From positions 3,215-67,214 of the IMG/VR virus record IMGVR_UViG_3300022756_000004: 64,000 nucleotides of DNA. One strand, written 5' to 3'. Positions 42,183 to 54,825 of this stretch are shown here, in pieces. The position numbers were made by a program, and so were the translations under genes. Each line of letters opens with the position of its first letter. Within the stretch, counting starts at the first letter, position 1. Origin of the DNA: a virus. The notes under the pieces are model-generated. The model was not told where the DNA came from and did no database searches. It worked only from the letters and a program-made list of their open reading frames with translations.

Positions 42183-43028
42183 ATGGCGACCCATCCCAGC
42201 ATCATTTCGCTCGAGGATGAAGAGGATAAGGTAAATCTCCTCGTCTACGGGAAGTCCGGCGTAGGCAAAACGGTATGGGCAGGCAGCGCGAACAACGTTC
42301 TGTTCATCGCCCCCGAGGACGACGGCACCATTTCCGCCAAGCGACGAGGTTCCAAGGCGAAGAAGTGGAAGATCAAGTCCTGGGACGACCTCATGGAAGC
42401 CCTGGAGTGGCTGGAGGACAACGAGGATCACGGCTACGACGTGATCTGCATTGATTCCATCACGCACATGCAGCAGATTCTGCTCCGTCACATTCTCGAA
42501 CTGGTGGTGGAGGAGAAGCCGGACCGCGATCTGGACATCCCCGCGATCCAGGATCATCAGAAGTGGCAGAACATGTTCAAGCGGTTCGTTCTGCGCTTCA
42601 ACGCCTTGCCTGTGAACGTTGTGTGGACCGCTCTGGTCCGCAACGAGACGGACGAAGAGGGAAGCGATTTCCTCACGCCCGACATTCAGGGCAAGGGCTA
42701 CCAGATGTCCCAGACCATCTGCTCGTACATGACTAGCTATGGCTGCTTGCAAGCCAAGCGGGTCAAGAACAAGGAAGCGAAGGAAGGAGAACCGGAGTAC
42801 CGCATTGTTCGTGGAATCACCTGGGAGGATACCGGGGTGGTGCAGGGCAAGGATCGCACGGGCGTTCTGGCTCCCAAGACCACGGACAGGTCTCTTCAGC
42901 AAGTCCTGGATATGATCTTCCCTCCCGATGGCGGAAAGACCACCGCGCGGGCACCTCGAAACGGTGCCGTGAAAACCAAGTCCACTCGCGTGTCCACTTC
43001 GACCGCAGTCGAGAAAGTTGAGGCATAA
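42183..43028 (+). CDS. AAA_24/Sak4-like P-loop ATPase (recombination)
   Basis: LVYGKSGVGKT, ICIDSIT, KDRTG. Confidence 0.85.
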   Translation: MATHPSIISLEDEEDKVNLLVYGKSGVGKTVWAGSANNVLFIAPEDDGTISAKRRGSKAKKWKIKSWDDLMEALEWLEDNEDHGYDVICIDSITHMQQILLRHILELVVEEKPDRDLDIPAIQDHQKWQNMFKRFVLRFNALPVNVVWTALVRNETDEEGSDFLTPDIQGKGYQMSQTICSYMTSYGCLQAKRVKNKEAKEGEPEYRIVRGITWEDTGVVQGKDRTGVLAPKTTDRSLQQVLDMIFPPDGGKTTARAPRNGAVKTKSTRVSTSTAVEKVEA

Positions 43029-43030
43029 GA

Positions 43031-43903
43031 ATGCCCGTTGTCAAGTTCGGAAATCATGTCAGCAATGCTGCGACCGCAGCGGACGAGGTCGCCGATGGCG
43101 GCTACAGCGGTCCCATTCCCACCGAGCGGGGGATCTACCCCTGCTACGTCAAGATCTTCGATCTGGTGACCAACAGCAAGGGCGACCCGATGCTCAAGGG
43201 TCTCGCGGTCATCGATGTCCCGAAGAAGCACAAGTTCGCCAAGTTCAACGGCTACGGCATCTGGTTCCAGCAGAACATCACGGATCAGGGCAAGCCGTTC
43301 GTGAACCAGCTCCTCAACGCGCTCTCGGACGGCTCCGCGGAACACGCCGCGAAGATCCGCAAGGCGTTCTGGACCACGGGTGCTCAGACTGAGAAGGCGC
43401 TGCCGTCCAAGCCCAGTCAGTCAGCGGGGGCAATCCTCAAGATCGGGCCGCTGCGCTTCATGGATCTGGACGACAAGAAGCTCCGCATCCTCATCGCGGG
43501 CAAGCCGGAGACCTACAAGGACGAGCCGAAGCTGTCCGCCGGTAAGTACGTCATGAAGCAGAACGACGAAGTCAACTCGGACGACGATGACGAGGATGAC
43601 GACGACGAGATCGATACCGGCTCGGATGTTCTCGATGACGACGAGGATCTCGAGGACGACGAAGACGACGATGAGGATGACGACTTCGACGAGGACGAGG
43701 ATTCGGACGACGAAGATGAGGACGAGGACGACGACGAGGACGAAGTCGACACCGAAGACGACGACCTGGACGACGAGGACGAGGATTCGGACGACGAAGA
43801 TGAGGACGAGGACGACGAGCCCGCTGCGCCCGTGACGCCGATCAAGAAGGCTTCGGCGAAGAAGACCACCGGCGCGAAGAAGCGCGGAGAGCCTGCGTTC
43901 TGA
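43031..43903 (+). CDS. Putative ssDNA-binding protein with very long acidic tail
   Basis: Follows the exonuclease and ATPase; GIY...K.....NSKGDPML N-terminus, D/E tract, C-terminal PAF. Confidence 0.7.
   Translation: MPVVKFGNHVSNAATAADEVADGGYSGPIPTERGIYPCYVKIFDLVTNSKGDPMLKGLAVIDVPKKHKFAKFNGYGIWFQQNITDQGKPFVNQLLNALSDGSAEHAAKIRKAFWTTGAQTEKALPSKPSQSAGAILKIGPLRFMDLDDKKLRILIAGKPETYKDEPKLSAGKYVMKQNDEVNSDDDDEDDDDEIDTGSDVLDDDEDLEDDEDDDEDDDFDEDEDSDDEDEDEDDDEDEVDTEDDDLDDEDEDSDDEDEDEDDEPAAPVTPIKKASAKKTTGAKKRGEPAF
43687..43818 (+). repeat. 48-bp perfect direct repeat in acidic tail
   Basis: 43687-43734 equals 43771-43818. Confidence 0.85.
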
Positions 43904-43991
43904 TGTGCCAGTACTGCGGCCATCTGTCCCATATGCATGGGCCGATGGGATGCATCCTTTGCAAATGCACTAGCACAGGGAATCACACCTG

Positions 43992-44216
43992 ATGAGGTAC
44001 TTCAAGACCCGGTTGCATTACAACCCGCGACCGTCTGAACGATGGACCTGGATCTATGGCCACCGCTATACATCCAAGGGCATCAAAGAAATCAAGATTG
44101 GAGGGTGCTACCACTACTGGCCCTCCAAAACGACTCACTGGTTCGTGTGGAGTGTTCATCACAGCGACAATACGTGGCTGCGCGGTGAGCATGAGAGGCT
44201 CCATGTGAGCCGGTGA
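43992..44216 (+). CDS. Hypothetical W/H-rich protein
   Basis: 74-aa ORF with weak RBS. Confidence 0.45.
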   Translation: MRYFKTRLHYNPRPSERWTWIYGHRYTSKGIKEIKIGGCYHYWPSKTTHWFVWSVHHSDNTWLRGEHERLHVSR

Positions 44217-44360
44217 TGGGATGGGGTGAGAGAGCGCACACGGCTGGCTCCTCTTAAATGACCGCGCCACTGTACCGAGGCGTTTTCCTGGCTTCGGTCC
44301 GACGACAGGCGGCCCCTCTCTTCCTGTTGTATATTAGATGATTAACAAGGAGGTGAATAT

Positions 44361-44438
44361 ATGGGTTCCAGCGATGCCAGCATCGGCGTACTGTTGCTCC
44401 AGCTGCTGAAGTACATGCAGATGGGGAGCGGCAACTAA
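44361..44438 (+). CDS. 25-aa peptide MGSSDASIGVLLLQLLKYMQMGSGN
   Basis: AAGGAGGTGA RBS, AT-rich upstream region, terminator downstream. Confidence 0.65.
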   Translation: MGSSDASIGVLLLQLLKYMQMGSGN

Positions 44439-44473
44439 GGTCTGCCAAGAGTTGCAACGAACTCCAACGGCAT

Positions 44474-44509
44474 AGCGGGGATCGGTTTGACGACGGCCGG
44501 TCCCCGTTT
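44474..44509 (+). terminator. Intrinsic terminator
   Basis: CGGGGATCGG / CCGGTCCCCG stem followed by TTT. Confidence 0.65.
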
Positions 44510-44550
44510 CCACAATAAATGACAGGTCGGATTGGCCCGTAATACACCTC

Positions 44551-44564
44551 GGGTATGGTAGGCT
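44551..44564 (+). promoter_or_regulatory. Extended -10 promoter
   Basis: GGGTATGGTAGGCT, same GGGTATGGTA core as 30328 and 33548. Confidence 0.6.
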
Positions 44565-44596
44565 GATACAACCTGTTAGGTCTGGAAAGGCGAGAA

Positions 44597-45040
44597 GTGC
44601 AGACTTACATGACCCGGCTCGGCCTCTGGCGGACAGCTGTGGATCTCCATCTGGAGGAGCTGGACGAGTGCATCAACACTTCTGTGCATGTTCTCTCGTG
44701 GCTTATGGGGTCCGATGAGCCCCGGTTTCCGCCAGAGGAAACGCCTAGCTGGCTCGACGTGACTACGGCTTGGACCGGACACGAACATGCTCTGGCGAAT
44801 TACGGCGCGGTTCTGTGCAATCGGCATTGGGTTCTCTCTGGAGGCAAGATTCGCCCCGAGGCCCCCTGGTTTGCCCGGCAACAGCGCATAATTCGAGAGC
44901 AGGGATGGTCGTACAGCCGCCCGGCATGGGCTACCGACGTTAACGTGCTTACCGGGCACCGCTCAGAATTACTCAAGCTACGGCCTGAGTGGTATGGACC
45001 CAAGTTCGATATGACACCGAGGGAAGTAGAGGGAACGTGA
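44597..45040 (+). CDS. Pyrimidine-dimer glycosylase/endoV-like (MSMEG_6728-like) protein
   Basis: MQT...W.GHE.AL..YG...C...P.W......HRS.LL...PEWY...F pattern. Confidence 0.7.
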   Translation: MQTYMTRLGLWRTAVDLHLEELDECINTSVHVLSWLMGSDEPRFPPEETPSWLDVTTAWTGHEHALANYGAVLCNRHWVLSGGKIRPEAPWFARQQRIIREQGWSYSRPAWATDVNVLTGHRSELLKLRPEWYGPKFDMTPREVEGT

Positions 45041-45894
45041 AAGTAGCCATTCTGGGATGTGGCCCGACCGGTTTGTTGGCGGCGCACGCCTGCGCGATGA
45101 ACGCAGTGGACTTCACCATCTTGTCCAAGCGTCGTAAGTCCTTCCTATTCGGTAGCCAATATCTGCACGAGCCCATCCCCGGGATCAGTGACTTCGACCG
45201 AAAGGTTGAGATCACGTATCGCACGGATGGCTCCCCCGCAGAGTATCGGCGCAAGGTTCACGGTCCCGCCTGGGATGGCGTCATCCTCCCCGAGGATTTC
45301 GAACAGCACGATCAGGCGTGGGATATCCGGTTCGCATACGATCGGCTCTGGGCCGAGTACGGCCGGATGGTGCAAGAGTTCGAGATCCCGATGAAGCCGG
45401 AAGGCAACAACAACGCGGGACACTGGAACATCCCGGCAGCCATCTCGCGCGGCAAGTTGCACGAATACGATCTGGTGGTGTCCACCGTTCCCCGAACGTA
45501 TTGGAAGATGCCGGGGGATCAGTTCATTCATTCCAGCGGATGGGTTCTGGGGGATGCGCCGGAGCACGGCCAGTTCTGCCCGTTCACCACTCCTCAGGAC
45601 AACATGATCATCTGCAACGGGGAGGCCGAGCCCAGCTGGACCCGACTGAGCCGTGTCTTCGACTACACGACCGTGGAATGGCCTGGCGGAACGAAGCCGC
45701 CCATTCCCGGAATCTCGGAGATCATCAAGCCGTTGCGGTTCGAGGCAGGCCCCATCCCTCCTCCCCCGAACTGGATGTTCGTCGGAAGGTACGGAAAGTG
45801 GCACAAAGGCGTTCTAGTGACGGATGCTTTCAACGAGGTCCTGCAAGCCACCGGGACCAAGCCCGAGTGGATCTACAAGAAAGAGGCGCAATGA
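45037..45894 (+). CDS. FAD/NAD(P)-dependent oxidoreductase
   Basis: KVAILGCGPTGLLAA Rossmann motif, G.QYLH, VSTVP, C-terminal VGRYGKW (UDP-galactopyranose-mutase-like architecture). Confidence 0.8.
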   Translation: MKVAILGCGPTGLLAAHACAMNAVDFTILSKRRKSFLFGSQYLHEPIPGISDFDRKVEITYRTDGSPAEYRRKVHGPAWDGVILPEDFEQHDQAWDIRFAYDRLWAEYGRMVQEFEIPMKPEGNNNAGHWNIPAAISRGKLHEYDLVVSTVPRTYWKMPGDQFIHSSGWVLGDAPEHGQFCPFTTPQDNMIICNGEAEPSWTRLSRVFDYTTVEWPGGTKPPIPGISEIIKPLRFEAGPIPPPPNWMFVGRYGKWHKGVLVTDAFNEVLQATGTKPEWIYKKEAQ

Positions 45895-46376
45895 GTTCGG
45901 ATTCGGTATTTTGCAGCGTAGATTTGCTTTTTCATCCGGAAACCAAGCAGGCAGAGCGTATCCTCAACGAGATTCTCCCTGGAGTAATCGAGCTCTTCCT
46001 GGCCAAAAACAAGGATTACAAGATCGAGGGGATCGACATCGCTGCCACGCTCGGCGTACGCGGGCAGTGGTCGGACATGTTTCGGAAGATCGCCAAGCTC
46101 AAGCAGGAGATGTGGGACCAGGACGGTTCTGGCCTCCAATTTGAGACCGCCGAAGAAGTGATCAAGGACCTTATCGGACACTGCCTGCTGTCCCTGCTGT
46201 TCCTCAAGGACGCGAAGCCGAAGACCGTAAAGCTTTCCGAGGGATTCCTCCAGACCACCGGAGGATATCCCGGAGGATATCCCGTCGTCGGCGAGGCCAA
46301 TCCGACCAAAGGATTTGTTGAAGGTCGCCCTTTCGTGGGGACGGCTCGGAAGATCGTGGACAACCCGCAGGCATGA
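45891..46376 (+). CDS. Nmad1/DUF1599-like helical protein
   Basis: F..KNKDY.....G..G....M.RK..KL...DLIGH pattern. Confidence 0.65.
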   Translation: MSSDSVFCSVDLLFHPETKQAERILNEILPGVIELFLAKNKDYKIEGIDIAATLGVRGQWSDMFRKIAKLKQEMWDQDGSGLQFETAEEVIKDLIGHCLLSLLFLKDAKPKTVKLSEGFLQTTGGYPGGYPVVGEANPTKGFVEGRPFVGTARKIVDNPQA

Positions 46377-46522
46377 GCGGACTGAAAGAGTTCTCGGTGG
46401 CCTTCGAAATCAAGGATATCGATGCCAATTTCGCGGCATTGTTCTTCGGTCCGGAATTCTGGGAGTGGCTGATGCAACCGCAGATTGAAGAATGGGAAAA
46501 CGAAGGAGGAGCAATCCGATGA
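46373..46522 (+). CDS. 49-aa hypothetical protein (not in ORF track)
   Basis: ATGA coupling on both sides. Confidence 0.5.
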   Translation: MSGLKEFSVAFEIKDIDANFAALFFGPEFWEWLMQPQIEEWENEGGAIR

Positions 46523-46686
46523 CATTCTGGCACTTGTTGATTCTTATCTTGGTCTGCTGGATTCTCGGCTCGGTGTGGCTCTCGATGTACATCGGGCACC
46601 GCATCAAGATGGCCGAGATGGAGCAGAAAGTGATCGATCGCGAATACGAGATCGAGAAGCTCAAGAGCGACTTCAGGAACTCATGA
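46519..46686 (+). CDS. Small membrane protein
   Basis: AGGAGG RBS, transmembrane segment plus coiled coil. Confidence 0.65.
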   Translation: MTFWHLLILILVCWILGSVWLSMYIGHRIKMAEMEQKVIDREYEIEKLKSDFRNS

Positions 46687-47033
46687 GCACCAAGAGCGCT
46701 GCACAACTAAGGATGTGGAGGGCTGTCCAGGCCGGGAAACTGATACCTTCCTCGGAGTGCCAAGAATGTGGGAAAACTCCACTTCCAACCAAGAATGGTC
46801 GTCGGGCAATTCAAGGCCATCACCACAATGGATACGAGGATGCGCTGGACGTCATTTGGCTATGCCCTAGCTGTCATAAGCTGGCTCATCGATATACGGC
46901 TTCTGAAGAGACTAAGAGGAGGATGAGCGTGGCCAATAAGGGGCGAGTGCTTAACTTGTCTCCCGAAGACAGAGCCAAGAAGGCGGAGTCTTGCAGGATT
47001 CAGGCTCCGTGGAAGGCTAGGTGGGGCGCATAA
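46683..47033 (+). CDS. HNH-like endonuclease with NUMOD3-like tail
   Basis: CQECG...HH..Y...LDVIWLCPSCH...H, then SEETKRRMS..NKG. Confidence 0.75.
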   Translation: MSTKSAAQLRMWRAVQAGKLIPSSECQECGKTPLPTKNGRRAIQGHHHNGYEDALDVIWLCPSCHKLAHRYTASEETKRRMSVANKGRVLNLSPEDRAKKAESCRIQAPWKARWGA

Positions 47034-50000
47034 TGCGATACGTCAGCCTTCATACCCACAGTACGTTCTCGTACGGGGATGGATTCGGCCCCGTAAAATC
47101 CCATGTGGCCCGCGTGGCGGAACTGGGCATGAAGGCTGTCGCCCTGACAGAACATGGGAATACGAGCTCCCACGTACAGCTCGAGAAAGCCTGCAAGGAC
47201 TATGGGATTAAACCCCTTTACGGCTGCGAGCTCTATACGGCACCGACTGATTTCGAAGCCGACGATGGTCGCCCAATCCGAACTCGTAAGAAGTTCCATC
47301 AAACTGTTATCGCTCGAGACGAAGAAGGCTATCGCAATCTCAATCGGATGGTCTCCGCCAGCTGGAGAGATCACTTCTTCCAGTGGCCGACAACTTCTGC
47401 TCGACTTCTCAACGAGTTCGGCTCAGGCCTCGTGGTACTCAGCGGGTGTGCTGACTCACTCCTATCTTGTACCTTACTCGGTGGAAAGGAACTTGGCCCT
47501 AAACGACTGGAGTACTCCGGAGAAGATTTTGCCCGAGCTCGTGAGGTCATTGAGCGATATCAAGACATATTTGGGGAATGGTACTTTCTGGAAGTACAAC
47601 GCTTTCCGGGCCTGGAGCGAACTTGCGTTCTTAATCCTGCTTTTGCAGAGCTTTCACGAATTACTGGAGCTCGACTCGCCGCAAGCTCTGATGTCCACTA
47701 CCCATTTCCAAACGATAATGAAATGCAACGGGTTCTCCACGCAGCCCACCGAGGAGGAACTGTAGAGCAGGTAGACGCGAGCTGGGAGTACGACATCCTG
47801 CTCACCTATCCTACCTCGGACAAGGAAATACGTGATGACCTGGTCGCAACAGGACTCTCTAAGGTAGATGCGCGAGCTGCAATTGATGCAACCGCTCTTA
47901 TCGCAGACGAGTGCACAGTATCTCTTCCAAGAAACGAGCCGATTAAGTTCCCCTATCCTGGTTCCGACATGGATGGAATGGATAAAACCTGGGCGTGGGA
48001 ACGAGAGCCCGAAGACGAAGAGGGATTCGTACGAGAATACGGGTCTATTGAAGAATACGTATGGCAGAAACTTCGGGATGGCTGGCGTTTTCGGGCTGAG
48101 GGTAATTCCGAGATGGTCCGCTCTGACGCCCGAACGAAGGAGTACGTGGACCGCCTTCAATACGAAATGGAGCAGGTTTCTGAGAAAGGATTCCTGCATT
48201 ATTTCGCCATGCTGTCTGATGCCGTGTCCTGGGCTAAGGATCACAAGATCCCTGTGGGACCCGCTCGCGGTTCAGCTGCCGCGTCTCTCACCTGCTACCT
48301 ACTTCGGATCACTGAAGTGGATCCGATGCAGTTTCCCAACATGTTGTTTGCTCGCTTTATCGACCCCAATCGTCTCGACCTCCCTGACGTTGACCTCGAT
48401 TTCGCCGATGATCGCCGAGATGAGGTCCGGAAATACCTTGTTTCGGTTTACGGGGCCGATCGTGTTGGGAATATTGGAAACTTTACACGGTACAAGGGCA
48501 AGAACTCAATTGACGATATTGCACGAGTGTACCGGATTCCGGGGTACGAGGCTAACGCTATCAAGGATCTCATCGTCGAGAGGTCGGGTGGTGACGCTCG
48601 CCAGTCAGAATCTCTTGCAGATACGTTTGCCATGTTCCCTAAAGCCAGGGAAGTTCTGGATCGGCATCCAGAATTCGCTCTCGCCGAGCGGCTCGAGGGT
48701 AACTACCGTGGACTCGGGGTTCACGCCGCCGGTATTGTAATCTCCAATGCACCCATCACGGACACTTGCGCGGTCTACACGCGGCCGAAAGCCAACTCGG
48801 ACCAGAACGTAACCGTGGTGGCGTACGACAAGAAGGACACCGAGTACCTCGGTATGCTGAAGGCGGACTTCCTGGGATTGTCCACCATGGGCATGATCGG
48901 TATTGCCCTGGACATCATTGGCATGGACCTGGAGGATCTGTATCGTGTCCCCATCACCGAAGAACGAACCCTACGTGCATTTAAGGATAACGACCTCACG
49001 GGAATATTCCAATTTGAAGGCCGGGCCACGGCAATCGTCAACGCTGATGTTGTCCCGGACAACTTCGGGCACCTGGCGGATATCAATGCTCTCTCCCGCC
49101 CCGGACCGCTCTTCTCTGGAATGACCGCTGAGTACTGCCACGTCAAGCACGGCAGAAAGGAGGCTGAGAAGCTGCACCCGGTCGTTGACCGGTTGACCGG
49201 CTGGACCTATGGTCAGATTGTATATCAAGAACAGGTTCTCAGTATCGTCAAGGATCTCGCAGGATTCCCAATGGCGCGCGTCGGCGATATCCGTCGTATC
49301 ATTAGCCAGAAACTCGGCCAGATGGCCATGGCTAATGCATACCAGGAATTCGAGGAAGGATGTTTCAAGACCCATGGGATCAAGGCGGATCTAGCTCGCC
49401 GGATCTGGAACTTTATCGCTACGAGCTCTACCTACAGCTTCAACCAGAGTCATTCGGTGAGCTACTCGCTGCTTGCATTCTGGTGCATGTACCTGAAGTT
49501 GTACCACCCGACTGCTTTCTACGCCGCCCAGCTCACAAAGGTCGGCGACGGCAAGGATGATCTGTATGACCGAGGCAAGCTCATGCAAGACGCCATCCGC
49601 CACGGGATTACGATTGCGCCCCCGGACATCGAGCTTTCGGGACCGAACTGGACAGCCGACACGGATTCGAAACGGGTCCTGGCTGGCTTCATGCAGGTTT
49701 CCGGAATCGGACCGGCCACGACGCAGAACATACTTCAGTGGCGGAAGGACGAGAGAGAGTTTCGAGAGCTGTCATCTTCTGGGATCAATGCTCCTTATCA
49801 GTGGGGCGATCTCATCGCCGTCAAGGGGATTGGTCCCAAGACCATCGAAAAGATCAAGGAGTTTGCGGAGGCGGAGGATCCTTTCGGGATCCACGCGGTA
49901 GAGCGCAAGGTCGGCCCGGTGCGTACAGCAATTCAGAATGGAGAGGATGGGATGGAGATGTTACCCGCTCCGTCCCACCACTCCACTGAGATGCCGCGCG

Positions 50001-50335
50001 ATGGGGTTCATACTGTGACTTGGCTCGGTATCGCCCGGAGCCTTAACTACAAGGACTACGTAGAAGCGACCCGTACTCGCACTGGCCAAGACGAGGAGGA
50101 GATCCTGGCCAATATGCGGGATCCCGAATTGCGAAAGTCATGCGTAGTGCGCGCCTACGACGAGGGTGACGAAGATGTCTACCTGCGATTCAACAGGTGG
50201 CAGTATCCGAAGTTCCAGGAGGCTCTGGAAGAACTGAATCCTGAAGAGGATCTGGTTCTGATCCGGGGCACCAAGCGCGAGGACTTCGGTATTTCAATCC
50301 ACGTAAAAGATCTCTGGGTGATATCTGGTGACTAG
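47033..50335 (+). CDS. dnaE: DNA polymerase III alpha subunit (DnaE-like)
   Basis: PHP domain LHTHS.FS..DG and ALTEHG; ARGSAA.SL, PDVDLDF, HAAG, K.DFLGL, YQEQ, YSFN.SH. Confidence 0.95.
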   Translation: MRYVSLHTHSTFSYGDGFGPVKSHVARVAELGMKAVALTEHGNTSSHVQLEKACKDYGIKPLYGCELYTAPTDFEADDGRPIRTRKKFHQTVIARDEEGYRNLNRMVSASWRDHFFQWPTTSARLLNEFGSGLVVLSGCADSLLSCTLLGGKELGPKRLEYSGEDFARAREVIERYQDIFGEWYFLEVQRFPGLERTCVLNPAFAELSRITGARLAASSDVHYPFPNDNEMQRVLHAAHRGGTVEQVDASWEYDILLTYPTSDKEIRDDLVATGLSKVDARAAIDATALIADECTVSLPRNEPIKFPYPGSDMDGMDKTWAWEREPEDEEGFVREYGSIEEYVWQKLRDGWRFRAEGNSEMVRSDARTKEYVDRLQYEMEQVSEKGFLHYFAMLSDAVSWAKDHKIPVGPARGSAAASLTCYLLRITEVDPMQFPNMLFARFIDPNRLDLPDVDLDFADDRRDEVRKYLVSVYGADRVGNIGNFTRYKGKNSIDDIARVYRIPGYEANAIKDLIVERSGGDARQSESLADTFAMFPKAREVLDRHPEFALAERLEGNYRGLGVHAAGIVISNAPITDTCAVYTRPKANSDQNVTVVAYDKKDTEYLGMLKADFLGLSTMGMIGIALDIIGMDLEDLYRVPITEERTLRAFKDNDLTGIFQFEGRATAIVNADVVPDNFGHLADINALSRPGPLFSGMTAEYCHVKHGRKEAEKLHPVVDRLTGWTYGQIVYQEQVLSIVKDLAGFPMARVGDIRRIISQKLGQMAMANAYQEFEEGCFKTHGIKADLARRIWNFIATSSTYSFNQSHSVSYSLLAFWCMYLKLYHPTAFYAAQLTKVGDGKDDLYDRGKLMQDAIRHGITIAPPDIELSGPNWTADTDSKRVLAGFMQVSGIGPATTQNILQWRKDEREFRELSSSGINAPYQWGDLIAVKGIGPKTIEKIKEFAEAEDPFGIHAVERKVGPVRTAIQNGEDGMEMLPAPSHHSTEMPRDGVHTVTWLGIARSLNYKDYVEATRTRTGQDEEEILANMRDPELRKSCVVRAYDEGDEDVYLRFNRWQYPKFQEALEELNPEEDLVLIRGTKREDFGISIHVKDLWVISGD

Positions 50336-50762
50336 ATATACATCAGCTCAGGCCATTATCAAGTTCTGGGGTCGAGTGGACATAACTCCAATTTGCTGGA
50401 ACTGGACGGCTGGAAGAGCTGGGAAATACGGACAGTGCTACACATTTACCGTCCCCAAATATGTCCACGTCGTATCCTATGAATTGGAGATTGGGTCAGT
50501 TCCAGAGGGGCTAGTTCTTGATCATATCTGTAATAATAAGATATGTGTAAATCCTCTTCATCTTGAGCCAAAAACTCAACGAGAAAATATTCTTCGTGGA
50601 ACTGGAGTGGCAGCAAACAACTCTCGAAAGACCCGCTGTTCAAACAATCACGAATTTAGTAAGGAGAATACCAGGAATTCAGTCAGAGGCAGAGTTTGCA
50701 GAGAATGCGAACGGATCAGAGACAAGAAAAGAGTAAGACCGTTATCAGGAGATGATGAATGA
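50328..50762 (+). CDS. HNH homing endonuclease
   Basis: CWNW.....YG...H..SYE...DHIC.NK.CVNP.HLE..T..EN; AT-rich. Confidence 0.88.
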   Translation: MTRYTSAQAIIKFWGRVDITPICWNWTAGRAGKYGQCYTFTVPKYVHVVSYELEIGSVPEGLVLDHICNNKICVNPLHLEPKTQRENILRGTGVAANNSRKTRCSNNHEFSKENTRNSVRGRVCRECERIRDKKRVRPLSGDDE

Positions 50763-51214
50763 CACAAGTAGTTAAGCCCTCGAATATCGAGGATCAGGTT
50801 CTGAGCTTCATGCGGCAGGCCGGTCAGCTCGGAGAGATCGGCTATCCGCACTTCTACTCGGACCTCCGCCAGAACAGGTGGGAGATGCTCATGGGAACCC
50901 ACGGCGAGATCATGGAGTACATGGTCGCTGAGGCTCGGGACGATCTGGTCGAAGCGGTGGACGGCCTCATCGACTCCATGTGGGTGATGATGGGAACGCT
51001 GCTCACCTACGTCGGCGCAGACTGCGCTCGGGATCTCATGAACGAAGTGGCACGAGCGAACCTGTCCAAGGTGGACGGCTCGTTGGCTCCACTGGAGCTG
51101 AACGACAAAGGCAAGGTCGTGAAGCCCGAAGCCTGGGAACCCCCGGATATCGAGGGCATCCTGAATCGGCACGGCTGGAAGCTGAACGAGAACGGAACCC
51201 CGATCAGTGACTGA
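50759..51214 (+). CDS. MazG-like NTP pyrophosphohydrolase (dUTPase-like)
   Basis: E..E....DLVE..DGL.D...EV..AN.SK...GKV.KP..W.PPDI. Confidence 0.8.
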   Translation: MTQVVKPSNIEDQVLSFMRQAGQLGEIGYPHFYSDLRQNRWEMLMGTHGEIMEYMVAEARDDLVEAVDGLIDSMWVMMGTLLTYVGADCARDLMNEVARANLSKVDGSLAPLELNDKGKVVKPEAWEPPDIEGILNRHGWKLNENGTPISD

Positions 51215-51572
51215 CAAGGGCTTCGAAAAGGCGGCTGAGTTCCTCGAGGATGAGCCGAGCAACCTTCCGGCGAACACGCACGATCCAGAGACCGGTGAGC
51301 CGATCGGCCAGGGACTGACGGAGCTGGACTTCGCCATGTTTCAGAACCGATTCGGACCGGCAATGGCTGGAGAGATATCTCCCCAGCGTCGAGCGCTGGC
51401 GGAAGCTCGTATGAGGACGGTAGCGGCCCTCCTCGGACAGCAGGCTTCCACCTTCGTGGAATACCTGAAGAAGATCGGTCTGCCCTATACGTTCGACACT
51501 AATGCCGACGGCAAGAAGATCATCTGCATCACCCTGGAAGACATCGCCGAGAACGACATGAAGAGAGGCTGA
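51207..51572 (+). CDS. Hypothetical protein
   Basis: Tight packing, codon usage. Confidence 0.7.
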   Translation: MTDKGFEKAAEFLEDEPSNLPANTHDPETGEPIGQGLTELDFAMFQNRFGPAMAGEISPQRRALAEARMRTVAALLGQQASTFVEYLKKIGLPYTFDTNADGKKIICITLEDIAENDMKRG

Positions 51573-51573
51573 A

Positions 51574-52104
51574 ATGGGCGTAGGAGCTAACGCCATTCGA
51601 ACGGACCGACAGATCGTCACGCTGTGCGGCAGTATGCGGTTCTGGGGTCAGATGGTGGAAGTCGCCAAGGTGATGACCATGGATGGAGCTGTGGTACTTG
51701 CTCCGTTCGTGGACGTATCCATTCTGGATGATGAGGCTGAGGGGACCCATCGCAAGAAGAAGCAACTGGACGATTTGCACATGGACAAGATCGCCATGAG
51801 CACCCGAGTGATCGTCGTGATGGTGGACAATTACGTCGGAGAGTCCACTCAGAAAGAGATCAGCTACGCTGCGGCCCAGGGTATCGAGATTCAGTTTCGG
51901 AACTTCCCCACCGCCATCGGAAACACCGGAGCGACGATCAACCAGCCCAAAGCATCAGAAGATGTTCAACTGATTAATACCGGAAACGGTAAGGTCTTCG
52001 CCAACGGCGTTGAGGTAGATCCGGAGACGATGAAGCCGGTTCGCCAGGCCATGCATCTAGACAGCCTCCCTCCCTTCGACCCGTTCGAGGACGAGACGCT
52101 GTGA
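51574..52104 (+). CDS. Nucleoside 2-deoxyribosyltransferase-like (DUF4406-like) protein
   Basis: VTLCGSMRF...G.VVLAP...LH.DKI.MS...YVGEST.KEI.YA. Confidence 0.65.
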   Translation: MGVGANAIRTDRQIVTLCGSMRFWGQMVEVAKVMTMDGAVVLAPFVDVSILDDEAEGTHRKKKQLDDLHMDKIAMSTRVIVVMVDNYVGESTQKEISYAAAQGIEIQFRNFPTAIGNTGATINQPKASEDVQLINTGNGKVFANGVEVDPETMKPVRQAMHLDSLPPFDPFEDETL

Positions 52105-52203
52105 TCTTCGTATTTGGACTGGTGGTTGGACTGATCGTCGGCGGCATTTTGGGATTTATCGCCGGTCTGTTCATCGCCTCTATCGAGAACCCATAGGAGC
52201 ACA

Positions 52204-53457
52204 ATGACGGAACCTGATATCGAAGGTATCTTTGACCGCAAGAATAAAGAGGAGTTGGGATACATTCCAGGGAAACAGGTAGCTAAGTACGCGGACGAGA
52301 GCATGTTCGTGGCGGAGAAGACCGAGGCGCTAACTCCTCGGGTAACTCTGATCCATGCGAACAACGATCCGCTCGGGCAGTTGGCACAGCTCGGAATGAT
52401 GTACCAGGGCAAGAGCGTTCGCAATATCGCCGAGATCACGGACGAGGATCGGCGGTATTACTTCAAGGACGGTCGCAAGAACATCCTCGGGATGCCTTCC
52501 GAGGCTATCGTGTTCCACTTTCTCATCGAGAACGTGACGCGGTCGTATACTCATCAGCTGGTTCGCACGCGGCACGCCAGCTACGCACAGGAGTCTCTGC
52601 GATTTGCAGTCAAGGAAGATTTCCCGGTGGCTCTTCCGCCAAGCCTGGCGGGTACGAAGGACCTCGACGAGCGGGCTCTGGAGTTCTGCTTGCAGATGGG
52701 ATGGGATCCAACCGACGGATTCCCGAACAGCAACATGGATCGAGCTCGGGCACAGGCCCGGTCCAATCGGACCGAAGCTGAGATCATGCGGGATCAGTGG
52801 GATGACGAAGTAGACCGACTGGCACGTTCGTACAACATTCTGATCCATCAGGGAATGCCTGCGGAGGACGCCCGAGGGCTGCTCCCGCACAACATTCTCA
52901 CCAAGGTCAACATGGTGATCTCGTTGAGGGCTCTGATGGGCATGGCTGGCCAACGGCTGTGCACTCAAGCACAGTTCGAACACCGGCAGGTGTGGGATCA
53001 GCTGCTCGCGGCTATGCGAACCTACGGGCACACCAAGGTCTACGCCAGAGATGGCCAAGATGAGTACGGGGAGTGGCAGGATTCTCCGAATTCGGGCTGG
53101 CAGTTCGACGCCATGGCGAATCAGTTCCTCCCCATCTGCTATCAGACCGGCAAGTGCCAGTTCGAGAGCGACTTCGATCGGTATTGCAACATCCGAGATC
53201 GGGTGCAGGCCAACGCCAAGATCGGCCGTCCTAGTAGCGAGTGGAATCGGGAATGGCTCGTGCCGGTGGCTCCGGATTACGATCCGCTGGTGGATCTCGG
53301 GATGCCCACATCTCCTCCGTTCCCCACCGTAGAAACCAGGGTCGGTATCCCGGCCATCAATCCGCAGGAATGGCTCCATCCCAATGCGGCTATCCAGCCG
53401 GATGGCCTGTGGCGGAGCCAGGAAGCGCAAGAGAACATCAAGGACAGGAGGCTCTGA
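52204..53457 (+). CDS. thyX: Flavin-dependent thymidylate synthase-like protein (divergent)
   Basis: F.IENVTR..THQLVRTR.ASY.QES.RF, EDARGLLP, RLC.QAQ.E. Confidence 0.8.
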   Translation: MTEPDIEGIFDRKNKEELGYIPGKQVAKYADESMFVAEKTEALTPRVTLIHANNDPLGQLAQLGMMYQGKSVRNIAEITDEDRRYYFKDGRKNILGMPSEAIVFHFLIENVTRSYTHQLVRTRHASYAQESLRFAVKEDFPVALPPSLAGTKDLDERALEFCLQMGWDPTDGFPNSNMDRARAQARSNRTEAEIMRDQWDDEVDRLARSYNILIHQGMPAEDARGLLPHNILTKVNMVISLRALMGMAGQRLCTQAQFEHRQVWDQLLAAMRTYGHTKVYARDGQDEYGEWQDSPNSGWQFDAMANQFLPICYQTGKCQFESDFDRYCNIRDRVQANAKIGRPSSEWNREWLVPVAPDYDPLVDLGMPTSPPFPTVETRVGIPAINPQEWLHPNAAIQPDGLWRSQEAQENIKDRRL

Positions 53458-53673
53458 ATGAGTCAGCTGATCGTGAGCGGTGAGGATCGTTCCGAGTTCT
53501 ACGAGAAGATCCGAGAGTCCATCAATATCTGTTCGGTGGATAACGAACTGAATATTCCGGACTTCATCCTGGCCGAGTACGTTTTGAAGAATCTCCTCGC
53601 ATTGAAAGAGACTCTCCAGGCTTCGTCTACCTGGAAGGGCGAGGCTTTCGATTTCACGCCGGGGAGGCAATGA
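53458..53673 (+). CDS. Hypothetical protein
   Basis: AGGAGG RBS; S.DN..N.PDFILA.Y motif. Confidence 0.7.
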   Translation: MSQLIVSGEDRSEFYEKIRESINICSVDNELNIPDFILAEYVLKNLLALKETLQASSTWKGEAFDFTPGRQ

Positions 53674-53907
53674 AGCGCTGGCTGGATCAGTTCTGGCACC
53701 AATACGGCCTCGGACATCTCATCTGCCGTAATTTCGAAGAAGTCCTGGGGCAAGGTCCCACCTACGAAGTATGCACCTGCGGAAAGGAATGGAAGTGAAG
53801 ACGTTCTTTCAGAAGCTGTTCATGGCGGTCGCTGTCTCCACGGCGGCGAAGCTGGCCTTCATCGGTCTCGAGGCCGTGATCGAGAAGGTCATCAAGGAGC
53901 ACAAGCA

Positions 53908-54201
53908 GTGAAGAAGTACTACGAGATTCAGGTGAGCAACATCGACGAATGCAGCCTCCCCGAGGTTGTTGACATGGTCGAGAAGCTGCGAGCCATGCAG
54001 TTTCCCGGTACTTTCTGGGGCTGGGTCGGTGCGAAGCTGATGGTCACGGGCTACCAGAAGATGATCGATCTCTGCAAGAAGGAATGGGACAAGAAGATCC
54101 TCAAGGACCCGTCCAAGTTGGCGGAGATGCCCAAGTTCCCCGGCTTTCATCTCATGAAGGTGTACGAGGATTACGACAAGATCATGCGGGAGAAGAAGTA
54201 G
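53908..54201 (+). CDS. Hypothetical protein
   Basis: AAGGAG RBS. Confidence 0.65.
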   Translation: MKKYYEIQVSNIDECSLPEVVDMVEKLRAMQFPGTFWGWVGAKLMVTGYQKMIDLCKKEWDKKILKDPSKLAEMPKFPGFHLMKVYEDYDKIMREKK

Positions 54202-54825
54202 ATGGGACAGACACCCAGGGCCATGGGATCCGACGACTACGAGGATATCACCGGCAAGGTGGATCTGGACGGCGGTCTGAATCTCGACGACCCGATCTTC
54301 AAGGCGATCGCCGAGGCAAACCAGATCGCCAACTTCAAGAAGGCCGCAGGCGAAGCGGCTTGGACGGCGGTCCAGAACAACGTGAACGTGGAGATCCCGA
54401 ACCCCGGTATCGTCATCGCACCGGCCCGGAGCGTATCTGAGATCAGCGACGGGGATCACACCTTCAAGGATCTGTACTTCGCTCGGATGCTCCTGAACGC
54501 GGCGCTGTTCAACGAGTGGTCGGGCTGGCAGTTCCCGCACAAGCGAGTCCGCAGCGTGCAGAAGTCCAAGCTCCACGCGGACGGAACCATGTTCGAAGGC
54601 GGATGGTTCATCGTCATGGCCGAGCTGGAGCAGCGGGACGGATCCTTCAGACAGATCTCGTTCCATTACGAGATTATGTGGTGGGATCTGTTCCAGATCA
54701 ATCCCCGTGTACGGGCTGCGGAGTGGGACGGACACGACGCATCCGAAGCCTATCGCCGTATCGGGGAGTTCCTGTCTCTGACGGTGGCTCCGGATAGCAC
54801 TCTCGGAACGCTGTTCAATGGCTGA
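54202..54825 (+). CDS. WDGH-motif protein
   Basis: SDG.HTF..LY..R...KS..H.DG...WFIV...QIS.HY...W..F...EWDGH. Confidence 0.75.
   Translation: MGQTPRAMGSDDYEDITGKVDLDGGLNLDDPIFKAIAEANQIANFKKAAGEAAWTAVQNNVNVEIPNPGIVIAPARSVSEISDGDHTFKDLYFARMLLNAALFNEWSGWQFPHKRVRSVQKSKLHADGTMFEGGWFIVMAELEQRDGSFRQISFHYEIMWWDLFQINPRVRAAEWDGHDASEAYRRIGEFLSLTVAPDSTLGTLFNG

Follow-up and report, generated by a model that had tools for sequence, protein, structure and literature searches.

Does the run of nucleotide-metabolism genes around the replicase gene of an actinobacteriophage make a modified DNA base, or does it supply ordinary thymidylate? The locus that raises this question lies in the IMG/VR virus record IMGVR_UViG_3300022756_000004 (67,214 bp; CheckV completeness 99%), and the window analysed here, a stretch of 64,000 nucleotides, covers bases 3215-67214 of that record. 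A first-pass annotation of the window had proposed that seven genes behind a single promoter, encoding an endoV-like glycosylase, a flavin adenine dinucleotide (FAD) oxidoreductase, an Nmad1/DUF1599-like protein, the polymerase DnaE, a MazG-like pyrophosphatase, an NDT-like protein and a divergent ThyX, form a DNA base-modification pathway built around DnaE.

Our analysis places ten open reading frames (ORFs), g1 to g10, at window positions 44597-53457 on the + strand. The genes described earlier are real, share this strand and are tightly packed, but the run counts ten members instead of seven, two HNH endonuclease genes flanking dnaE and an ORF at 51207-51572 having been left off the earlier list. 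The conserved unit within it is the oxidoreductase (g2), g3, DnaE (g5) and a long ThyX (g10), and what is new here is a ThyX subfamily with a four-cysteine (Cys4) extension and dedicated partners. We give an even chance to the reading that g10 makes deoxythymidine monophosphate (dTMP) for the phage replicase, possibly being reduced through its partner flavoprotein.

Four genes of the run are inherited together

The conserved core consists of the following genes, given with their window coordinates:

45037..45894, + strand: g2, 285 amino acids, FAD/NAD(P)-Rossmann oxidoreductase with a predicted glutathione-reductase-2 (GR2) type fold (phrog_8720, function unknown, 4.5e-96)
45891..46376, + strand: g3, 161 amino acids, helical protein, Nmad1/DUF1599-like by remote similarity (phrog_10271, 1.9e-20)
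47033..50335, + strand: g5, about 1100 amino acids, full-length DnaE-type DNA polymerase III alpha, the phage replicase (Pfam and NCBIfam matches)
52204..53457, + strand: g10, 417 amino acids, long ThyX-family enzyme with an insertion and a Cys-rich C-terminal extension (PF02511, 7.2e-29)

Conservation of the neighbourhood was tested in two sets, cultured phage genomes and IMG/VR metagenomic loci, the latter collected by alignment-based searches (a single-sequence ThyX query returned no relatives). Among cultured phages, 126 records carry the oxidoreductase (Gordonia 46, Microbacterium 36, Mycobacterium 32, Streptomyces 9, Arthrobacter 2 and Nocardia 1), and 122 carry g3, with the same genus counts except for Microbacterium (32 versus 36). 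ThyX matches that span 80% or more of the query come from 88 records of the same genera, and all 283 ThyX-matching records include 46 from Gordonia, 36 from Microbacterium and 28 from Mycobacterium. The oxidoreductase-seeded scan of IMG/VR returned 80 loci, 38 of them at least 18 kb long, in which the genes of the run were present as follows:

DnaE: 38/38 loci
long ThyX in the flank: 28/38 loci
g3: 26/38 loci
MazG (g7): 4/38 loci
g1: 3/38 loci
g6-type HNH: 2/38 loci
g8: 1/38 loci
g9: 1/38 loci
g4-type HNH: 0/38 loci

All ten loci without a ThyX in the flank have a PF02511 match above cut-off at another place in the record, the open frames being 320-485 amino acids long. In the reciprocal, ThyX-seeded search of IMG/VR, the oxidoreductase was found in the flank of 59 of the 80 loci; two more lie on records already known to hold it, and seven of ten records searched whole were also positive, which brings the total to 68 of 80. 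The three negative whole-record searches concern records that are 82%, 26% and 32% complete and loci that begin inside dnaE, while the remaining nine loci extend less than 4.2 kb upstream of ThyX; none of these 12 non-positives is informative.

The association of ThyX with the oxidoreductase persists at about 24-40% identity, and it does so with variable gene order. Microbacterium phages arrange these genes as oxidoreductase, ThyX, g3 homologue and then dnaE. For example, the three genes are consecutive in the Microbacterium phage Aesir (gp51-gp53), and in OverHedge the oxidoreductase (gp52) adjoins ThyX (gp53). ThyX likewise adjoins the oxidoreductase upstream of dnaE in the IMG/VR loci L061, L083, L086, L126, L134 and L166. 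Across the SEA-PHAGES actinophages (Terapinvirus, Lambovirus, cluster D, OverHedge, Aesir), orthologues stand in the same module with the same synteny, at 37-53% identity to this phage for ThyX and 34-51% for the oxidoreductase. This conservation, in cultured phages and IMG/VR alike, bears out the suggestion that an atypical ThyX is genomically tied to the flavoprotein and the Nmad1-like protein. It does not extend to the seven proposed pathway genes as a unit: because g1, g7, g8 and g9 are present in only one to four of the 38 loci, we regard them as accessory.

The long ThyX homologue

g10 scores 101.4 bits against Pfam Thy1 (PF02511; cut-off 24.8; E 7.2e-29), above the gathering score. In Foldseek, its AlphaFold2 (AF2) model, with a predicted local distance difference test (pLDDT) score of 81, matches the ThyX structures of Thermotoga maritima and Mycobacterium tuberculosis (TMt 0.54-0.67, 21-23% identity). 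Canonical ThyX (T. maritima TM0449 and M. tuberculosis; PF02511) and g10 have the same fold and conserve the Arg and Ser residues that contact deoxyuridine monophosphate (dUMP), whereas the canonical enzymes are 220-258 amino acids long against 417 for g10, at about 21-23% identity.

Residues of g10 were mapped by profile-to-PDB alignment onto T. maritima numbering, with the 12-residue tag removed, and their conservation was read from 45 distinct sequences taken from oxidoreductase-bearing loci. R121, R123, S131, R133, R224 and R251 correspond to T. maritima R78, R80, S88, R90, R147 and R174, and these six aligned dUMP-binding residues are kept in 44-45 of the 45 sequences. Beyond the shared fold, g10 has extra sequence inserted at about residues 140-200, and its C-terminus is lengthened by an extension of about 150 residues, for which a PDB sequence search gave chance-level matches only and no detectable relative. 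Each of four cysteines (C253, C312, C318 and C328) is found in 44 of the 45 sequences, and C253 lies two residues past R251, the Arg aligned with T. maritima R174. One distant and three clustered cysteines are a common arrangement for binding a metal centre. A complex prediction of ThyX residues 30-417 with the oxidoreductase, both supplied as alignments, gave scores of 0.00 and 0.01, where the mark is 0.32.

An intein domain (PF14890) is present in seven of the 120 listed long-ThyX relatives, in proteins of 559-722 amino acids (P0049-P0051, P0053, P0055, P0062 and P0068). Inteins usually sit in functional enzymes.

The flavoprotein, g3 and DnaE

The AF2 model of g2 (pLDDT 90.7) has at least 500 PDB matches in Foldseek at E <= 1e-3. 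They include D-amino-acid oxidase, UDP-galactopyranose mutase, VioD, PHBH, the styrene monooxygenase StyA and tryptophan halogenases, with TM scores of 0.37-0.51. Its Pfam matches are below cut-off (FAD_binding_3, E 0.011); in the family alignment the motifs GCGPxG, GDAP and GRYG are invariant. The model and the presence of the GxGxxG Rossmann motif support a GR2-type two-domain FAD fold with FAD as the predicted cofactor, and it is this fold that backs the label of FAD oxidoreductase given earlier. At the end of the second Rossmann strand (residues 28-35) the alignment shows a family-invariant Ser followed by Arg/Lys residues. FAD binders usually carry Asp or Glu at this point, and Ser with basic residues is more typical of NADP(H) sites. 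A site binding a 2'-phosphorylated dinucleotide is therefore a possibility suggested by the alignment.

Among 185,579 prokaryotic species (one genome each) we found only three relatives of g2, all on contigs of metagenome-assembled genomes (MAGs). Two of the three have flanks, and both show phage synteny: on contigs L176 and L177, binned as Saccharibacteria and Scandinavium, the oxidoreductase stands with g3 and DnaE in the phage arrangement, and both are probably phage contigs swept into MAG bins.

For g3, the earlier Nmad1/DUF1599-like label stands as a weak one. The PF07659 hidden Markov model has no match at E <= 10 in g3 or five homologues, nor in a six-frame search of the genome, and matches one of 30 g3 homologues (E 0.0022). 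An Atlas feature score of 0.92 to DUF1599 clusters, with 23 of 30 neighbours in such clusters, serves as a lead only. The Pfam name of the PF07659 domain that g3 resembles is 'Nucleotide modification associated domain 1'. The identity of g5 as DnaE is borne out by PF07733 (9.5e-69), PHP (1.4e-34), the finger domain (3.5e-32) and NF004226 (8.6e-192). It is 59-66% identical to DnaE of Terapinvirus Gordonia phages (LittleFella, Terapin), Nocardia phage P3.1 and cluster-D mycobacteriophages (PBI1, Troll4).

Thymidylate synthesis or a modified pyrimidine

According to our preferred reading, g10 would use methylene-tetrahydrofolate and FAD to methylate dUMP reductively, and the dTMP so formed would supply the phage DnaE. 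In its favour, the dUMP-binding residues are intact and g10 is the sole thymidylate-synthase homologue of the genome, since ThyA (PF00303) has no match at E <= 1 in its 67 kb. Because the aligned dUMP-contacting Arg and Ser are all kept, ordinary dTMP synthesis fits at least as well as modification does. With two histidines lost (see below), four cysteines gained and a flavoprotein as constant partner, the flavin of g10 is probably not reduced by NADPH directly. We postulate that its reductive half-reaction could be outsourced to the flavoprotein, electrons passing from NAD(P)H to the flavoprotein, then possibly to a Cys4-bound metal centre, and from there to the ThyX flavin. Virion DNA would then be expected to be canonical, and nothing in this analysis shows the non-canonical base that the first-pass annotation had envisaged.

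Several points weigh against this reading. First, g10 reaches 76.4 bits against the NCBIfam equivalog model for thyX (TIGR02170), short of the cut-off of 87.9; set beside its strong PF02511 match, this justifies the earlier description of a divergent ThyX. Second, both histidines of the canonical flavin/folate/NADPH site are replaced. Where the ThyX signature motif is RHR-x7-S, g10 reads R121-T122-R123-x7-S131; position 122, that of the RHR His, varies among Q, S, T and N in the 45 relatives, none of which has H. The equivalent of T. maritima His53, which belongs to the flavin/folate site and is named in PDB titles as a target of ThyX folate-site studies, is L95 in g10, with Leu in 40 of 45 sequences and His in none. 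Since both histidines are replaced, g10 may run a reaction other than the canonical one. Third, we know of no characterised ThyX that needs a co-inherited flavoprotein and Nmad1-like protein; to our knowledge every characterised ThyX works alone with NADPH. The electron relay through the flavoprotein is, moreover, something that we infer. Fourth, all these phages share one replication-module ancestry, so that the co-occurrence may partly reflect descent and not function. Differences from canonical ThyX comprise the insertion, the Cys4 C-terminal extension, the replacement of the RHR His and His53, a score below the equivalog cut-off, and the constant company of a flavoprotein and an Nmad1-like protein.

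Lastly, in relatives from cluster D and Lambovirus three additional genes lie between the oxidoreductase and dnaE (Benzema gp61-64, L002 3399-5788; Gibbin gp72-77, L006 11303-14556). These encode an NT5C-type deoxypyrimidine 5'-nucleotidase, a Methyltransf_11 S-adenosylmethionine (SAM) methyltransferase and a short-chain dehydrogenase (SDR), and they look more like nucleotide chemistry than plain dTMP supply, which also weighs against our preferred reading. The window has none of the three; in contrast to cluster D and Lambovirus, this phage has the endoV-, MazG- and NDT-like genes and two HNH genes.

It is possible, though unlikely, that the trio of long ThyX, flavoprotein and Nmad1-like protein makes a non-canonical pyrimidine deoxynucleotide that DnaE incorporates. 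An exocyclic-methylene or methyl intermediate would be trapped or oxidised to give 5-hydroxymethyl or another C5-substituted dUMP. Several of the features just described would suit such chemistry: a distinct ThyX subfamily below the equivalog cut-off, with both histidines gone and four cysteines in 44 of 45 sequences, C253 among them near the R174 equivalent; the fold that g2 shares with flavin oxidases and monooxygenases (D-amino-acid oxidase, VioD, PHBH, StyA, halogenases); the resemblance of g3 to a domain named for nucleotide modification; and the NT5C nucleotidase, SAM methyltransferase and SDR that relatives add in the same slot. The literature offers two further supports. ThyX chemistry includes an exocyclic-methylene intermediate that nucleophiles could trap, according to PMC8989533. 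PolB of polyoxin biosynthesis is described in PMC5954106 as a neofunctionalised ThyX paralogue, and so sets a precedent for a ThyX homologue drifting to another pyrimidine nucleotide substrate; it is a Streptomyces biosynthetic enzyme, set beside g10 here by description and not by sequence.

Against the trio as a source of modified nucleotides stand the intact dUMP-binding residues and the content of the genome, in which no P-loop AAA_33 kinase, GT2 glycosyltransferase, trimeric dUTPase or ThyA-type hydroxymethylase was detectable. Nor is any enzyme that would exclude deoxythymidine triphosphate conserved with the trio, MazG occurring in four of 38 loci. More than 100 cultured phages carry these genes, and a full-text literature search found no report of modified DNA in them, which is an absence of report and not a test.

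The pathways of thymidine hypermodification in phages M6, ViI, SP10 and phiW-14 start with a ThyA-family dUMP hydroxymethylase and need a 5-hydroxymethyldeoxyuridine (5-hmdU) DNA kinase together with aGPT-Pplase or other transferases. Unlike them, the present phage lacks ThyA, an AAA_33-type kinase and a GT2 glycosyltransferase. For AAA_33 and GT2, the genome-wide searches agree with the first-pass statement that kinase, aGPT-Pplase and glycosyltransferase are missing. None of 30 other ORFs scanned outside the structural half of the window, with no aGPT-Pplase model among the profiles, fits a 5-hmdU kinase, aGPT-Pplase or glycosyltransferase. What this locus shares with the hypermodification systems discussed in PMC8989533 is a phage thymidylate-synthase homologue beside nucleotide-metabolism genes; plausibly, it also parallels them in a flavin-dependent step and in having a MazG-like enzyme.

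Improbable, too, is the view that neither the oxidoreductase nor g3 is connected with ThyX, all being independent genes of an old syntenic replication module in which the cysteines bind structural zinc and the flavoprotein has a redox, host-metabolism or replisome-associated job. Since the carriers are one broad actinophage set that shares its module order, the genes could be found together simply through co-inheritance; DnaE is as constant a companion as ThyX (38 of 38), and no sequence feature ties the flavoprotein to nucleotides. The association nevertheless survives divergence to about 24-40% identity and survives rearrangement, ThyX standing beside the oxidoreductase and upstream of dnaE in Microbacterium phages and several IMG/VR loci, and the flavoprotein family hardly occurs outside these phages. 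We regard as decidedly unlikely that the Cys4 ThyX, the flavoprotein and the Nmad1-like protein form a three-component flavin (possibly iron-sulfur) system making a C5-modified deoxyuridylate for DnaE. If true, it would be a ThyX-based, and not ThyA-based, route to modified phage DNA in well over 100 actinobacteriophages.

Accessory genes and homing endonucleases

The other six genes of the run are:

44597..45040, + strand: g1, 147 amino acids, divergent member of the pyrimidine-dimer glycosylase (T4 endoV/MSMEG_6728) superfamily, accessory (transitive family evidence)
46485..47033, + strand: g4, 182 amino acids, HNH-type endonuclease with an uncertain start codon (phrog_2340 endonuclease, 4.4e-14)
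50328..50762, + strand: g6, 144 amino acids, HNH_3 homing endonuclease (PF13392, 3.8e-11; phrog_826, 3.9e-40; PADLOC HEase, 2.4e-4)
50759..51214, + strand: g7, 151 amino acids, MazG-like all-alpha nucleotide pyrophosphohydrolase, accessory (phrog_671, 1.5e-25; phrog_12019, 2.9e-21)
51207..51572, + strand: g8, 121 amino acids, protein of unknown function, found in the closest relative alone (1/38 loci)
51574..52104, + strand: g9, 176 amino acids, possibly of NDT/DUF4406-like fold, accessory (Atlas score 0.83)

g1 itself has no Pfam match, PF03013 (Pyr_excise) included, and no PHROG match; a phmmer search against the PDB found nothing, and its score against NCBIfam NF038085 (MSMEG_6728_fam; E 1.5e-7, 31.5 bits) is below the cut-off of 100. 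A representative library of 1.8 billion proteins yielded 42 relatives of g1, and because 28 of the 38 aligned ones match PF03013 (best E 1.6e-22), the endoV call is right at the level of the superfamily. It goes no further: at the conserved family columns R21, K24, R26 and E28, the counterparts of residues that serve T4 endoV in DNA binding and catalysis, g1 has E, E, I and T. The three closest relatives likewise replace the conserved columns of the N-terminal helix and lack a Glu at column 28.

The MazG-like label of g7 is backed by its two PHROG matches (Pfam PRA-PH, E 0.029, is below cut-off), and g8 has no match in Pfam, PHROGs, NCBIfam or PADLOC. For g9, which has no Pfam, PHROG or NCBIfam match, the NDT-like label remains a lead only. 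It is suggested by the Atlas score of 0.83 to DUF2493/DUF4406 clusters, under the tool's level for more, and by one of four phage tblastn matches, an Anabaena phage ORF annotated as deoxyribosyltransferase (33.7% identity over 54% of the protein). PDB sequence searches with g1, g3 and g9, and with the g1 and g3 family profiles, gave chance-level matches only.

g4, whose Pfam HNH and NUMOD3 matches are below cut-off, occurs in one of the 80 related loci and is probably a free-standing homing endonuclease. The two free-standing HNH genes (46485-47033 and 50328-50762) flank an intact dnaE in the window. dnaE is one ORF in this phage but is split in LittleFella and OverHedge, where it is annotated as two ORFs, and Terapin has additional ORFs between the dnaE pieces. 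With the loci L001 (5941-9356) and L004 (9015-12366) also in view, dnaE looks like a hotspot of homing-endonuclease traffic in this phage lineage.

Alongside dTMP synthesis by g10, which we prefer, g7 would serve housekeeping of the deoxynucleoside triphosphate (dNTP) pool and g9 salvage, g1 would be an endoV-family protein without the conserved catalytic-region residues, and g4 and g6 would be selfish homing endonucleases beside dnaE. All of these and g8 would be lineage-specific add-ons and not steps of one pathway. That the whole ten-gene run is instead one dedicated modification operon, as first proposed, with the endoV-like protein removing uracil or a canonical base, MazG purging a canonical dNTP and the NDT-like protein swapping bases, is highly improbable: the genes are translationally coupled on one strand and every labelled family has some support, but g1, g7, g8 and g9 are rare in the 38 core-bearing loci (3, 4, 1 and 1, respectively), g1 is missing the basic residues and the Glu that its own family conserves, homing endonucleases account for two of the ten genes, and tight coupling is the norm in this all-+-strand genome.

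Layout and setting of the gene run

At seven of the nine junctions the stop codon of one gene overlaps or adjoins the start of the next, so that the description of the run as tightly coupled holds. Read from the sequence, g1/g2 overlap by GTGA and g2/g3 and g6/g7 by ATGA; g4/g5 overlap by 1 nt, g5/g6 and g7/g8 by 8 nt, and g8/g9 are separated by 1 nt. Real intergenic gaps occur only at g3/g4 (108 nt) and g9/g10 (99 nt), and a purine-rich, Shine-Dalgarno-like motif precedes most of the ten starts. Such coupling is usual across this phage genome, in which all called genes are on the + strand. One further feature lies upstream of the run:

44217..44596, + strand: gap of 380 nt upstream of g1, with one weak sigma-70-like match and a 25-codon ORF

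The sigma-70-like site, at 44487-44516, is the single one upstream on the + strand. The region holds four such sites, where shuffled sequence gives 4.5 +/- 2.1, a match count not above chance in a scan not tuned to actinobacterial promoters; the one promoter described earlier is at most a candidate. The 25-codon ORF in this gap, 5' of g1 (44362-44439, + strand), has a near-perfect Shine-Dalgarno sequence, AAGGAGGTG, 6 nt before its ATG. Rfam has no match in 43000-54500, and PADLOC gives a single match in the gene run, the weak one of g6 to a homing endonuclease.

A helicase, an exonuclease and a Sak4-like annealing protein are encoded upstream of the run, and a WDGH-domain protein followed by a primase/polymerase downstream. 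These flanking genes mark the region as a replication module. We read it as the block that serves DNA replication and nucleotide supply in an uncultivated actinobacteriophage, one of the Terapinvirus/cluster-D lineage. A megablast of the region against the phage collection gave no nucleotide-level match. The layout around DnaE, read earlier as the mark of a special pathway, is the ordinary shared synteny of the replication module in this actinophage lineage.

Two neighbours of the run deserve mention. The WDGH protein 3' of the ThyX gene (54202-54825, + strand) has 207 amino acids and its domain is PF25311 (1.5e-26). After the Sak4-like gene, 43031-43903 (+ strand) encodes a protein of 290 amino acids with a long poly-Asp/Glu C-terminal tail, which matches phrog_9460 'methyltransferase' (1.8e-30) and has no Pfam domain. 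The methyltransferase label seems doubtful, and a role like that of single-stranded DNA-binding protein seems as likely.

Implications

These genes are already annotated in more than 100 published phage genomes, as 'oxidoreductase', 'hypothetical protein' and 'ThyX-like thymidylate synthase'. Full-text literature searches, reaching few subscription journals, turned up no paper on what the oxidoreductase, the long ThyX or g3 does, and the papers that name these genes only list annotations. For annotation, the three labels in these phages should be treated as one unit, and the endoV-like, MazG-like and NDT-like neighbours in the window as incidental.

ThyX is both a drug target and a mechanistic oddity. 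The subfamily described here points to either a newly powered form of flavin-dependent thymidylate synthesis or new pyrimidine-modifying chemistry. Dozens of the phages that carry it are in culture on laboratory strains of Mycobacterium smegmatis, Gordonia and Microbacterium, which makes the question easy to settle.

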